NCBI GenBank assembly: GCA_964016885.1
Contig: CAXHJY010000114.1
Location: forward strand, 62,001-126,000
Direction: 5' to 3'
Origin: Eledone cirrhosa
Taxonomy: Eukaryota
DNA length: 64,000 nucleotides
Each line of letters begins with the position of its first letter. Position 1 is the stretch's first letter. The notes below the pieces were generated by a model that made no database searches, was not told where the DNA came from, and saw nothing but the letters and a program-made list of their open reading frames with translations. The translations under genes and the position numbers were made by a program. This document shows, in pieces, positions 17,253 to 50,868 of this stretch.

Positions 17253-17441
17253 TATTTTATAGAAGGAGCTTCTACAGGACTAGTACTGTTTCATTCAGAT
17301 GAAATCTTCCTGAAGATTTCATCTGAATGAAACAGTACTAGTCCTGTAGAAGCTCCTTCTATAAAATAAAAAAATTTTACTCTGCCATGTATTGAGTACC
17401 TTACTTACTGTGGTTATCCCCGACTCAACCCGGGACCTACG
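17253..17441 (+). mobile_element. PLE-derived short element: 57-bp-arm palindrome, intact hammerhead and 3' tail, in (TA)n
   Basis: Perfect inverted repeat 17253-17368 centred on 17310-17311; unique tail to 17441; (TA)n on both sides. Confidence 0.8.
17306..17352 (+). ncRNA. Type I hammerhead ribozyme
   Basis: cttc-CTGAAGA-t-ttc-atct-gaa-t-GAAA-cag-tactagtc-ctg-TA-gaag: stems I, II and III all pair; GUA cleavage triplet. Confidence 0.78.
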
Positions 17442-17480
17442 TATATATATATATATATATATATATATATATATATATAT

Positions 17481-17565
17481 AATCAGGAAAGACCGGGGCT
17501 TTCCTGATGATTTCTCCCGAATTAAACAGTTCTAGTCCTGTAGAAGCCATTTCTATATTAAATTT
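17481..17565 (+). mobile_element. Second copy of the same HHR family, core mutated
   Basis: ggctttc-CTGATGA-tttctcccgaat-TAAA-cagttctagtcctg-TA-gaagcc; 10-bp 5' fold-back atcaggaaag/ctttcctgat; partial third copy at 22204-22243. Confidence 0.7.
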
Positions 17566-18254
17566 ATATATATATATAGAGAGAGAGAGAGATAGGGAGG
17601 GTGAGAAAGGGAGAAAGAGAGACAGAAAGAGAGAAAGAAAGAGAAAGAGGCAGATAGACAGACATACATAGTCACTTAAAAATATACCTATTTATATAGT
17701 CATTTTGTGAACGAGAATATCGATGATTATGGATTTCAAACGTGTTTAACACTGATGGCCTGAGTTAACTGACACACACACACACACACACGCACACGCA
17801 CACACGCACACGCACACAAACGCACACACACGCACACACACGCACACACACACACACACACGCGCACACACGCACACACGCACACACAAACACACACGCA
17901 CACACGGATGTAATGTTACTAGTTAAGACTAGTAAGATCTTTATTCAACTAAGCACACCATATTAAAGAAGGTAGTGTGTATTTTTGTAAGATAGGGCAT
18001 GCTCTCCAATAATAATAATGGTTTCTGATTTAGGCACAAGGGCAGCAATTTTGCAGGAGGGAAAAGTTGATTATATCAACCCCAATACTTGACTAGTGTT
18101 TTATTTTATGGACCCTAGAAAGGATGAAGGGCAATGTTGACCTCGACAGGATTGAAATCTAAACGTAAAGAGCTGTAACTAAATACCACATAGCTTTTTG
18201 TCCGACGCTCTAAAAGACTGCCAAATCCATCGGCCTTCCAATAATAATAATAAT

Positions 18255-18440
18255 AATTGTTTCTACGTTTTGGCACAAGGCCAGCAATTACCCAGTACAT
18301 TACTGGTAATTTATTTTATCGACCCCGTAAGGATGAAAGGCAAAGTTAACCTCGGCGGGATTTGAACTCAGACTGTAAAGGGACATAACTATGCTAGAAA
18401 GCATGGCGTCCAACCCTCTACCGATACTGCCAATCCACCG
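18255..18440 (-). mobile_element. SINE family A in (AAT)n
   Basis: Family A reverse complement flanked by caataataat on both sides; older copy at ~18010-18238. Confidence 0.85.
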
Positions 18441-18612
18441 CAATAATAATATATATTTATGCATACAAACATACTCACATAGACAGACAGACAGACACAC
18501 ACACACACACACACACGCACGCACACACACACACACACACACACACACACACACACACACACACACACACACACACACACACACACACACATATACATAC
18601 ATATATACATAT

Positions 18613-18798
18613 ATAGGAAAATGTTTGACCCCGACGGCAGAGCTCAAGCCATTTCCACGGCTATTTCTGGACTGAAATAACCGTCTTGAGCTCTGCCGTC
18701 AGAGTCAAACATTTTCCTATTACCCACTCTAATACCCTAAGTATTGAGTACTTTGGTGCGTTATGGTCCACCTGGTTCCTCACCACACCTCCTTCGTT
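18613..18798 (+). mobile_element. PLE-derived fold-back element (second HHR family)
   Basis: Imperfect palindrome 18613-18720 plus tail, in (TA)n; homologous to 19583-19797. Confidence 0.75.
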
Positions 18799-18845
18799 AT
18801 ATATATATATATATATATATATATATATATATATATATATATACA

Positions 18846-19045
18846 GGGTGACCTGCCCCCAAATGTGTACATCCCTACTTACCACCATAGGCGCTGAGCT
18901 GGCTAGCCGCAGGTGTGAGCCTCGCGAGATGGAATGGCTCTTCCAGTGCATCTCCCTTACCATCCACCGAGGAAACGCCTTCTCCATTCTGTCCGCCGGG
19001 GCCGTGGGGCGACCAGCACGTGCGACCCTCATTTTATCATAATAC
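18846..19045 (+). mobile_element. CRE-clade non-LTR retrotransposon 3' fragment (RLE C-terminus)
   Basis: TSLLTTIGAELASRRCEPREMEWLFQCISLTIHRGNAFSIL matches the CRE C-terminal FQRxSxAxxRGNA motif. Confidence 0.75.
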
Positions 19046-19149
19046 AGAGAGATGGGGAGGGCGAGAGAGATGGAGGCGTTGGCAGCGTCAGTTGTCCGTA
19101 GGGAGGTAGTGGTTTGTACTTAGCGAAGGTTTTTAGAACCTTGTGTTTG

Positions 19150-47400: not shown

Positions 47401-48218
47401 CATCAACGATAGAAGACTACCCTGTAAATGTTGGTGCCAGAAATGGAAAATTCTCGAACACTATTATTAGGAAGACTTCAACTACAGATTTTTGTTACTG
47501 ATAAATGGGGTTTTTAACTCGAAATATTAGATTATGAAAGACGTTGTCTGCTGGTTTAACATTTTAAAACTAATTCGTATATTCTTCTGGCTTATATAAA
47601 GCGTCGTGAAACTGTGAATGAGCCGAAAAAGAACAAAATAGAAAAATACAGGAAAAGTATAAACAAAAATGATGAAAAGGAAATGGACGATAAAAAAAGG
47701 CCATTAATAAAAAGAAAAGAAGAAACAAAACAATAACAACAACTATAAGAAGAGAAGAACAAAAACAGTAACTAATGAAATGATAGGAAGAAGAAAAAAG
47801 AACAATAACAAAAGAAAAGAAATCCTATAGAGTGTAAACATAGATTGAACATTATTTCTCTTAGTGTAAAGCTAATCCCTTTAAGTCTAGATATCTCATT
47901 AGTTTACCACTTTCAGTCACTTCTAAGTATATAATTCCATTAAAAATATACTTCAAGATAATCTCGGCTTATTGGACATCCACATAGGCCATTATTATTC
48001 TTTTCTGGTGACGTATTTTACTCAGTGTTTATATGGTCCGTGAATAACATTGCAAATACGGATATGTGTATGTATATATGTAGGTTATATATATATATAT
48101 ATATATATATATATATATATATATATATATATATATATATATGAATAAATAGATAAACAAAATATAATATATATATATATATATATATATATATATATAT
48201 ATATATATATATATGTAT

Positions 48219-48428
48219 AAGATGTTTCCATAGTTAGGCAGCGAGTTCGCGGTAATTCCTATGTAGGTTATATTTGGAGCATAACTTATATAGAAATTAC
48301 CGCGAACTCCCTGCCTAACTATGGAAACATCTTGTTGAATTAAACAAGGCCGTACGCTAAAACTATTCACGACGCAGAGTAATCACAACCTCTAACTGGA
48401 TTACCTATAATGATAACTTGTTACCCCA
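48219..48428 (+). mobile_element. Fold-back element (~54-bp arms) plus tail in (TA)n
   Basis: Palindrome 48219-48333; GAAAC..cttgtt/aacaag..GTA resembles an HHR 3' half. Confidence 0.65.
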
Positions 48429-49060
48429 TATATATATATATATATATATATATATATATATATATATACACACATACACACACACACACACACATATATA
48501 CATACATATATATATATATGCACATATATATACTTATATACACACATATATATATATATATACATATATATATATATATATATATATATATATATATATA
48601 TATATATATATATATACACATATATATATACACATATATATATATATACACACACATATATATATACATATATTTATTTTTTGTTTATTTATTTATTCAT
48701 ATACATACATATACCTACATATATGCATACGTATATCCGTATATATGTATGTGTATGAATATATATATATACATATATACATATATATATACACATAGAT
48801 ATATACATACACGCACACACACATATATATATATATATATATATATATATATATATATATACATATATACATCTATATACATATATATACATATATATAT
48901 ATATATATATATATATATATATATATATATATATATATATATATATATATATATATATATATATGTATATATATATATGTGTATATATGTATATGTATAT
49001 ATAAGTATATATATATGCATATATATATATATATGTATATATATATATGTATATATATAT
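48428..49060. repeat. Compound (TA)n/(CA)n microsatellite
   Basis: Read directly. Confidence 0.95.
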
Positions 49061-49174
49061 TTATTAAAATAACAGATTAAAGTTTAAGCAAAGAATCGCT
49101 GCTTTCACCCTTAACGGGATCTTCTGAAGCTAACAAAGTCAATCTGTGACCGCAGAAGTGAATATTTAAAAAAA

Positions 49175-49512
49175 CGTTACAACCGGAGGAGGACAGGAAG
49201 ACGATACGTTGGTTCGTGGAAACGTTCCCTGGCAAAGAACGGGAAAAAACGAATATAATACGACAGGTTTGCGGTCGTTCCCCTGGCAGTGGAAACTTCT
49301 GGTGTCCTCGGCCCCAGGGCTACCTCCTTACTCACCACCATAGGCACTGAGCTGACCAGTCGTAGGTGTGAGCCTTGCGAGTTGGAGTGGCTTTTCCAGC
49401 GCGTCTCCCTTGCCGTCCTCCGGGGAAACGCCTTCTCCATTCTGTCCGCCGAGGCTGTAGGTGGGCCCCATCGCGTATCATTACATTAGTTAAATACCAT
49501 ACTTTCATCTCA
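49175..49512 (+). mobile_element. CRE-clade retrotransposon 3' fragment
   Basis: FAVVPLAVETSGVLGPRATSLLTTIG..EWLFQRVSLAVLRGNAFSIL; followed by (TA)n. Confidence 0.82.
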
Positions 49513-50251
49513 TACATATATATATATATATATATATATATATATATATATATATATTAATATATTGTGTGCTTATTCAGTTGATGCTTGGCAGTTTCTG
49601 TGCTTGATTATACGTCATATGTGGAGCATGGAGAACAATTGCACGCAAAGACAAAACCACGTAAATGGTATAATAGAAATCGTAGACTAAAATTCTAACT
49701 AGGAGACCGAATGATTCTCGGCTTCAGAGTTAAGAATAAAGTAAATAAAATACAGAGGTAATTGAAATTAAATAAATACATATACTCATCCATGATCGTA
49801 CATACACAAGTAACGCGAAAACACTCGCTATAGGTATACAAATACACGCACATATAAATATGTGTGTGTGTGTGTGCGTGTATACAAATAATTAAATAAA
49901 CGTATATAAATAAATAAATACGTATATAACAAACGCACGCACATACCCACATGTAAATACACAAAAGTTCGGAGACGTACGTCAACCAAAACACGAAGTA
50001 TACATATACACGCACCCTACATACGTATGAACCCGCATACTCACACAGACGCAAAACTCACGTATACACATAACCAAAAGCATATGTACCAGAATATATA
50101 AAAATATACGCCATAACATATACAATCAAATATACGTACGAGAATGTATACGTACCTTCACAAAACATACAGGTAATACATACTTACCTTATCGAGCCCT
50201 CTTTGGATTTTAGTCTTCAAATTTATTATTATTACTATATATATATATATA

Positions 50252-50442
50252 GGGCGGTGAATTGGCAGTATCGGTAGAGGGTTGGACGCCATGCTTTGAC
50301 GCATAGAGTTACGGCCCTTGCAATTCTGAGTTCAAATCCCGCCGAGGTTAACTTTGCCTTTCATCCTTATGGGGTCGATAAAATAAAGTACCAGTAATGT
50401 ACTGGATAATTGCTGGCCTTGTGCCAAAAGTAGAAACAATTA
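50252..50442 (+). mobile_element. SINE family A, full length
   Basis: gggcggtgaattggcag...agaaaca; attactatatata duplicated on both sides. Confidence 0.9.
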
Positions 50443-50496
50443 CTATATATATATATATATATATATATATGTGTGTGTGTGTGTGTGTGTGTGTGT

Positions 50497-50868
50497 CTGG
50501 TGGTAGCTAAGATGCTTCCATAGGCGGTATGCCGGTTGAGCACTCTATGTTCTTACAGAGCAGAGTATGATAGAATAGAAAAGGAAAAATCAGTGATGTA
50601 TCTGAACTCAATTAATTGTGTGTTACAATTGTTTTGCAGGAGGACAGCTCGAGACGCGATCATTGTGTGGATCTGTCTGATTCTGGACCCACAGGTTCGT
50701 CGGACACGTCTAATGATTTCGGATAGACGTGTCCGTCGAACCTGCGGGTCCAGAATCAGACAGATCCACACAATGATCGCGTCTCGAGCTGTCCGCCGAC
50801 GAAACAATTGTAACACACAATAAATTGAGTTCAGATGCATCACTGATTTTTTCCTTTTCTATTCTGTC
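50497..50868 (-). mobile_element. Fold-back element with ~143-bp arms plus tail, between microsatellites
   Basis: 50569-50712 pairs with 50724-50868; GAAACAATTGTA (HHR 3' half with palindromic loop) at 50801-50812. Confidence 0.75.

Follow-up and report, generated by a model that had tools for sequence, protein, structure and literature searches.

What do the tails of TA-inserted elements in the Eledone cirrhosa genome have in common? The question arises in a 64,000-nucleotide stretch of repeat-rich eukaryotic DNA (contig CAXHJY010000114.1, positions 62,001 to 126,000, forward strand; hereafter, the window), in which (TA)n arrays, short interspersed elements (SINEs) and long interspersed elements (LINEs) are abundant. 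The original prediction picked out six such tails, each with a stem of 4-7 bp upstream of its terminal microsatellite, and suggested that the stems form an RNA structure recognised by the reverse transcriptase (RT) of Penelope-like elements (PLEs). Our data indicate that they belong to a bulged hairpin that is almost certainly a real conserved structure and that may anchor the PLE RT on its template.

The hairpin and its carriers

The carriers of the hairpin are short fold-back remnants of PLEs, hammerhead halves included, in keeping with the proposal that they are PLE ends. Each is an insert that is flanked by microsatellites and folds back on itself, the direct arm outreaching the inverted one, and self-BLAST recovers the palindrome, an inverted 5'-truncated copy, in A, B1, B2, C, D, E, G and H (letters denote families, digits copies). 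Published PLE anatomy includes an inverted 5' copy and an optional tail, and the Hydra clade combines a canonical hammerhead with a (TA)n target (Craig et al., 2021; PMC8557442; this and the other papers are cited from the accessible parts of their text and supplements). In a pattern scan of the window, hammerheads lie upstream of the hairpin and in the same sense, with a full core in A and D and a 3' half in B2 and G; in C and H the 3' half lies on the inverted arm, and the scan found no hammerhead in the family E insert. Insertion into (TA)n is seen for the window carriers, with H ending in (CA)n beside (TA)n. The carriers most likely belong to the (TA)n-targeting Hydra clade. They had been called unrelated, and indeed no BLAST cross-matches connect the families, but they are probably distant relatives, and the hairpin would therefore be common to them by descent.

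The hairpin consists of a 4-bp lower stem (RCYC/GRGY), a U-led 3' bulge of 1-2 nt, an upper stem of at least 3 bp, and RCU. What had been described as plain stems are the lower half of this 7-bp bulged stem-loop. All six are present in the places and on the strands assigned to them, their 4-bp cores ending 31-48 nt before the array; the shared gtattgagtac occurs in families A and B, and the pair change at 43276 is compensatory, with ACCC/GGGU pairing held. Additional copies lie in two further B tails (B2 and B4) and in both arms of family E. A strict descriptor returns eight matches in the window, six of which are A, B2, B4, C and the two E arms. Single-sequence folding backs the stem well only in B1, C and E (P 0.95-1.0 for B1 and C), with probabilities of ~0.5 in B2 and B4, 0.33 in H and 0.14 in A.

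Family A is inserted between (TA)n arrays at 17256-17441 (+), with an inverted arm at 17256-17309 and a direct arm plus tail reaching 17441 (self-BLAST palindrome 17256-17365, 98%). Its hammerhead core (CUGAAGA ... GAAA-stem III-GUC; 17310-17343, +), found by pattern scan, resembles by eye the forms in the Hydra hammerhead table (PMC8557442 supplement). The A hairpin (17379-17397, +) pairs ACUC with GAGU and has a UU bulge and upper pairs U-A, G-U and C-G, 44 nt from the array; a model built from the database loci alone (R1, below) detects it with an E-value (E) of 0.004. A tail-less relative of A (17482-17564, +; self-BLAST and end comparison) has a hammerhead core at 17504 and no hairpin. 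Self-BLAST places tailed fold-backs of family B at 18616-18797 (B1, +) and 19586-19794 (B2, -; hammerhead 3' half 33 nt 5' of the hairpin, by pattern scan), with hairpins at 18726-18749 (+; one upper pair broken, A-G; R1 E 0.042) and 19634-19657 (-; R1 E 5e-4). A tail-less B copy (23479-23543, +; self-BLAST and end comparison) stops just short of the hairpin position. The B4 tail (42648-42735, -; hairpin 42698-42721, -; self-BLAST, R1 E 2e-4) is joined to the inverted arm of D. This fusion (42648-42760) has no TA spacer and a short GGTTCA-like overlap, and would reflect either template switching between families or a subsequent insertion accompanied by a deletion.

The remaining carriers were delimited in the same way, by self-BLAST and, for hammerheads, the pattern scan. 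Family C is a tailed fold-back (42456-42619, +) whose inverted arm keeps an intact hammerhead 3' half; its hairpin (42559-42584, +) has a 7-bp lower stem, a 1-nt U bulge and a GUCC/GGAC upper stem, with a folding P of 1.0. The D fold-back (42740-43327, +; full hammerhead core 43073-43141) carries a hairpin at 43276-43296 (+) with the compensatory ACCC/GGGU, a 1-nt bulge and two of three upper pairs by pair script, which is out-competed in the predicted fold. Family E is a symmetric fold-back (43438-43776; palindrome 43440-43776) with both arms tailed; its hairpin (43680-43722, +; mirror copy 43494-43536, -) combines GCUC/GAGC, a UU bulge, UGA/UCA and a long loop, with arrays 54-56 nt away (strict descriptor; R1 E 1.8). 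Family G (48219-48427, +) is a tailed fold-back with a weak hammerhead 3' half and the weakest hairpin, a lower stem only (48365-48380, +; AUUC/GAGU with one wobble; folding dG 0). Family H (50497-50865, -) is tailed, ends at (CA)n(TA)n and has its hammerhead 3' half on the inverted arm; its hairpin (50542-50566, -) has ACUC/GAGU, a UA bulge and one broken upper pair, C-A (R1 rank 5, E 1.4).

How often would such stems arise by chance? For this comparison a stem was 4 bp with a loop of 6-20 and a 3' arm 28-52 nt from the array, scored against the best of 256 reference 4-mers. The six tails of the original prediction differ from ACTC/GAGT by three mismatches in total, with ACTC exact in four; among the departures are one G-U wobble (48365) and the compensatory pair (43276). 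None of 20,000 shuffled sets did as well, and of 50,000 random sixes drawn from 49 further flanks of arrays, 5 did; these controls excluded three duplicates and six ends of inverted arms and included E's right end. Treating the six as selected among 55 flanks gives P ~0.01 (116/10,000 for references with at least 2 G/C; 25/3,000 by min-p), and a naive selection test over all references gives 0.99 because AT-only stems are everywhere. Given the 3' arm, at least five perfect 5' arms in six has P 1.5e-5. The same six are also marked out independently, as the fold-back inserts of the window whose direct arm outruns the inverted arm.

Copies in published consensus sequences and database loci

The motif had been fixed on the window alone before six published Hydra consensus sequences were inspected by eye (PMC8557442 supplement). 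Four of them bear the full hairpin at a terminus (Hydra-2_Amil 3', Hydra-2_Ajap 3', Hydra-1_Ajap 5' and Hydra-1_Crog 5'), and represent a coral, two families of a sea cucumber, and a sea louse. It was because these sequences display the full structure that the bulge, upper stem and RCU were recognised. In Crog, G-C replaces A-U at pair 1 and pair 3 is C-G. The two complete consensus sequences with the hairpin start 2 and 6 nt ahead of it and have their ATG about 90 and 44 nt downstream, which puts the hairpin in the 5' untranslated region (UTR). It is therefore not the true 3' end of the RNA, and the 'tail' is the start of the next unit. The hairpin thus reaches insertion ends via internal initiation or read-through.

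Independent copies come from a scan of a genome collection for (TA)6 plus the conserved letters, a pattern with no term for hammerhead, open reading frame (ORF) or upper stem. The scan returned nine matches in eight loci (L001-L008), seven on contigs of assembly CBDDTI01 and one on a scaffold of a Solemya gill-symbiont assembly; these are likely animal DNA inside bacterial assemblies, through host contamination. The contigs themselves are rich in animal-type PLEs. The arms are complementary in 9/9 matches, and upstream lies a full hammerhead core in six and its 3' half in two, while one match is truncated. Both matches in L006 directly follow Hydra-type endonuclease C-termini. These loci also contain three further hairpin copies outside the matches of the pattern, one of them following a Hydra ORF in L007. 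The ORF is present in the relatives of L006, L007 and L008; in L008 (217-2152) it is near-complete and Hydra-type with one frame break, and by eye its protein closely resembles Penelope-1_NV (PMC8557442 supplement). A DKT motif, a CxCX5C linker, and CxxC and CxH with no CCHH are seen by eye in L008 and L006 and are absent from the non-coding window copies; Pfam GIY-YIG matched one of four locus fragments (E 6e-4, below the cut-off). In L004 (2997-3260) a serial insertion comprises a tail-less Hydra copy, a TA array, and then a mini element made of hammerhead, hairpin and tail only.

In the eight distinct locus sequences all 56 of 56 pair cells hold, with eight double changes, all in the three upper pairs, and none of 500 shuffles reached the same covariation; these numbers are inflated by relatedness and by the pattern's shared origin. 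RNAalifold recovers the same structure from the locus alignment unprompted. Adding four window copies, aligned so as to fit the model, gives 15 double changes and pairing in 90 of 91 cells. The model R1, partly circular through its pattern, ranks B4, B2, A, B1 and H as the top five of 13 window matches and the E arms seventh and eighth. MAFFT misaligned the 5' arm once C, D and G were included; for this reason no window-only model was built, and the pair counts of these three were made by script. The structure is conserved and covaries, and we are highly confident that the hairpin is real.

Position between two insertion ends and possible roles

Where does the hairpin lie relative to insertion ends? 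Tailed and tail-less ends occur within one family, so that the tail is optional. Tail-less ends (S1) stop short of the hairpin: in nine of ten families or copy pairs they fall at TA-like letters, 3-18 nt away on its 5' side. Tailed ends (S2) fall on its 3' side, at 31-56 nt for the window copies and at 33-43 nt for the loci, the latter range being partly imposed by the pattern. The spacing between hammerhead and hairpin is variable, from ~28 to 134 nt.

A precedent exists in another PLE. In Poseidon, the PLE protein initiates reverse transcription at two internal sites, one of which lies in a stem-loop, and the sequence between the two forms the tail; in vitro, the protein does not need hammerhead cleavage (Frangieh et al., 2024; PMC11167929). 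We propose that the hairpin is a putative protein-binding anchor that positions the PLE RT at two internal starts, a reading to which we assign a probability of roughly 0.6. Recognition of the hairpin by the RT is plausible from the geometry and the Poseidon precedent. A read-through transcript, tandem or circular, would present the ORF, the hammerhead, and then the 5' UTR of the next unit. The PLE protein would bind the hairpin and its GIY-YIG domain would nick (TA)n. Proximal priming at a UA-rich spot just 5' of the hairpin would then yield tail-less copies and inverted arms, and distal priming 3' of the hairpin would yield tailed copies in which the hairpin itself is copied.

Several observations weigh against this picture. 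The clade of the window copies is inferred, because inserts A-H have no coding remnant, RT and GIY-YIG ORF included, and their tails measure 65-95 nt rather than the canonical 30-40. The stem is not predicted to fold in G (P 0.04) or D (P 0.00), C, D and G go undetected by either model (R1 or R2), and the S1 end of G lies 33 nt from the hairpin. Among the consensus sequences, Hydra-1_Amil fits weakly, Hydra-1_Obim by eye lacks the full hairpin, and a mismatch interrupts the Crog 3' copy. The scan pattern was derived from window and paper motifs, which constrains the S2 range; seven of the eight loci come from one assembly, and the shuffle counts ignore relatedness.

The hairpin might instead work in DNA. 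It could be the site that the endonuclease recognises in the tail of its own element, or single-stranded cDNA could fold into it, thereby guiding resolution and fixing the ends. The Penelope endonuclease of D. virilis is reported to have needed the tail for recognition (PMC11167929), and Craig et al. attribute tails to endonuclease-mediated resolution (PMC8557442). Sense and antisense hairpins also have similar folding energies, which do not favour RNA over single-stranded DNA. We nevertheless consider a DNA role unlikely: the compensatory changes speak against a plain double-stranded site, the targets here are pure (TA)n without the hairpin motif, and sense-strand G-U pairs (A, G, L001, L006b) outnumber C-A (H) by 4 to 1, which leans slightly toward RNA. 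About equally improbable is that the hairpin acts within the 5' UTR, on how the element RNA is transcribed, stabilised or translated, its presence in tails being incidental. That the complete Ajap and Crog sequences practically begin with the hairpin, 5' of the ATG, fits this idea, which leaves unexplained why S1 falls within 3-18 nt of the hairpin across families of differing hammerhead spacing.

Could the hairpin be part of the ribozyme, as a second hammerhead stem III or a tertiary or switch partner? Stem III of Hydra hammerheads is frequently ACUC-n-GAGU (PMC8557442 table), and the hairpin is always 3' of the hammerhead. The GAA core is absent before the hairpin, however, the spacing between the two varies as given above, and at gathering score no Rfam covariance model matched the window or the eight loci. 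The A15.1-U16.1 pair of the hammerhead is invariant, and GCUC/GAGC, the commonest form of the hairpin, clashes with it. A ribozyme role is accordingly very improbable in our view. Last, 4-bp stems are common (about eight per flank), D and G are weak, and the selection-corrected P within the window is only ~0.01, so one might suspect chance stems in unrelated flanks. That the hairpin recurs in foreign loci and in published consensus sequences, and keeps pairs that were not constrained, largely refutes this explanation, to which we give hardly any weight.

Other structural candidates were set aside. A possible second hairpin (UGG..CCA or UGAG..CUCA) in the distal 30 nt of tails B, C, D, H, L001, L008a and L006a, ending 3-14 nt before the array, has a folding energy not above that of shuffles (mean z -0.2, 8/15 negative). 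A pseudoknot between loop and downstream sequence, suggested by D and A, is not general because several loci have 3-nt loops. The palindrome GAGYRCUC as a dimer site is mismatched at its centre in the commonest hairpin form. In an Rfam E-value scan, the 150 of 225 matches listed were sub-threshold, mostly microRNA families on repeats or palindromes.

How does the anchor that we favour compare with known systems? No such hairpin is described in the covered literature on PLE tails and RNA structure, a coverage that leaves most subscription papers and Repbase reports outside it; within it, the accessible parts of PMC4209133, PMC7229834, PMC5737381, PMC10085705 and bioRxiv 10.64898/2026.07.22.740005 contain no description of one. 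Hydra-clade PLEs are alike in their (TA)n targets, hammerhead near the 3' end, inverted 5'-truncated copy and optional tail, and the hairpin is present in their published consensus file (PMC8557442), with Hydra-type proteins encoded in L006 and L008; they differ in that no tail hairpin is described in the accessible text, and in tail length and coding capacity, as noted above. The AC-rich stem-loop of Poseidon PAc (PMC11167929) likewise lies near the start, in a system that initiates internally, has an AT-rich target and forms two ends separated by a tail. It belongs to another clade, lies in the ORF (+111 to +118), has the RT start inside its loop and, unlike the Hydra-type hairpin, is not shown to be conserved across families. 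The 3'-tail stem-loop of the stringent eel LINE UnaL2 is also a small conserved bulged stem near the start of copying, and its bulge is required for mobility (PMC1636434); it has another RT and endonuclease and a true RNA 3' end followed by template repeats, with no hammerhead, so the likeness is one of analogy only. A stringent LINE tail is the mobility-required RNA 3' end of an APE/REL LINE, and here the context is a PLE and the position a 5' UTR. The carriers also do not have the character of Naiad elements, which lack a canonical hammerhead, since hammerhead cores are present in A and D and the endonuclease of their relatives is C-terminal, not N-terminal. Helitrons have a 3' hairpin near the end and AT targets; in our inserts the hairpin is 31-56 nt from the end, CTRR ends are absent, and hammerhead and fold-back are present. 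By eye, Naiad consensus 3' ends show no such hairpin among 45 of the listed places, and octopus Naiad ends are also unmatched (PMC8557442 supplement, accessible part). Several bivalve Naiad consensus 5' ends share a conserved three-way-junction-like stretch near their start; in Naiad_Sglo, a hairpin without a bulge ends in GAGUAC and may be an analogue (both by eye; PMC8557442 supplement).

Neighbouring elements and wider meaning

What else does the window hold? A 3' fragment of a different PLE (44347-46114, +) is TA-inserted, with a long C/A-rich UTR and a hammerhead at 45995, and lacks the bulged hairpin; its GIY-YIG remnant (44347-44640) has an atlas score of 0.95 and no Pfam match. More hammerhead cores occur in TA-flanked inserts without the hairpin at 660-697 (+), 8420-8483 (-) and 46224 (+), the one at 660 looking Hydra-type. 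Two copies of one short element stand head-to-head around (TA)22 at 1894-2073, with the same end base. An apparently intact LINE (57590-62830, +) encodes a 592-aa ORF1 and an ORF2 with endonuclease, RT and zf-RVT, and has decayed relatives at about 28300-33900 (-) and 55050-57330 (+). The TA-flanked segment at 18844-19533 has imperfect inverted ends starting with CAGG, which we take to be mariner-like; a fragment inside it presumably translates as the C-terminus of a CRE-type retrotransposon, as does a second at 49260-49480. Tandem repeats comprise a 46-bp satellite (13586-15355; 38 copies, 95% matches) and a 191-bp tandem array of the common SINE (20357-21118; four copies).

The hairpin bears on how PLEs choose their RNA and why their tails are optional. 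RT-recognised stem-loops are already known in LINEs, and one is reported in Poseidon; what is added here is covariation across phyla and a ready assay. The hairpin is a 20-nt structure with natural compensatory variants, bracketed by both insertion ends, and it supplies exact mutants for the existing in vitro assay. It is also a DNA-only marker with which to classify non-coding PLE remnants, which are abundant in the window. The PLE RT is the sister group of telomerase (TERT), and in telomerase RNA, elements bound by TERT form structured RNA beside the template that would position copying; the comparison is by description only, the telomerase template being reiterated and the PLE template not. 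It is conceivable, if rather doubtful, that the hairpin is a portable template-positioning element of the whole clade, such that Hydra-clade RTs of every family would bind any RNA carrying it and copy that RNA into (TA)n, starting at a fixed point just upstream. If this were true, it would account for the tails of PLEs and for chimeras between families, the B-D junction among them, and the hairpin would be a mobile-element counterpart, and possibly an evolutionary relative, of the RNA elements bound by TERT.

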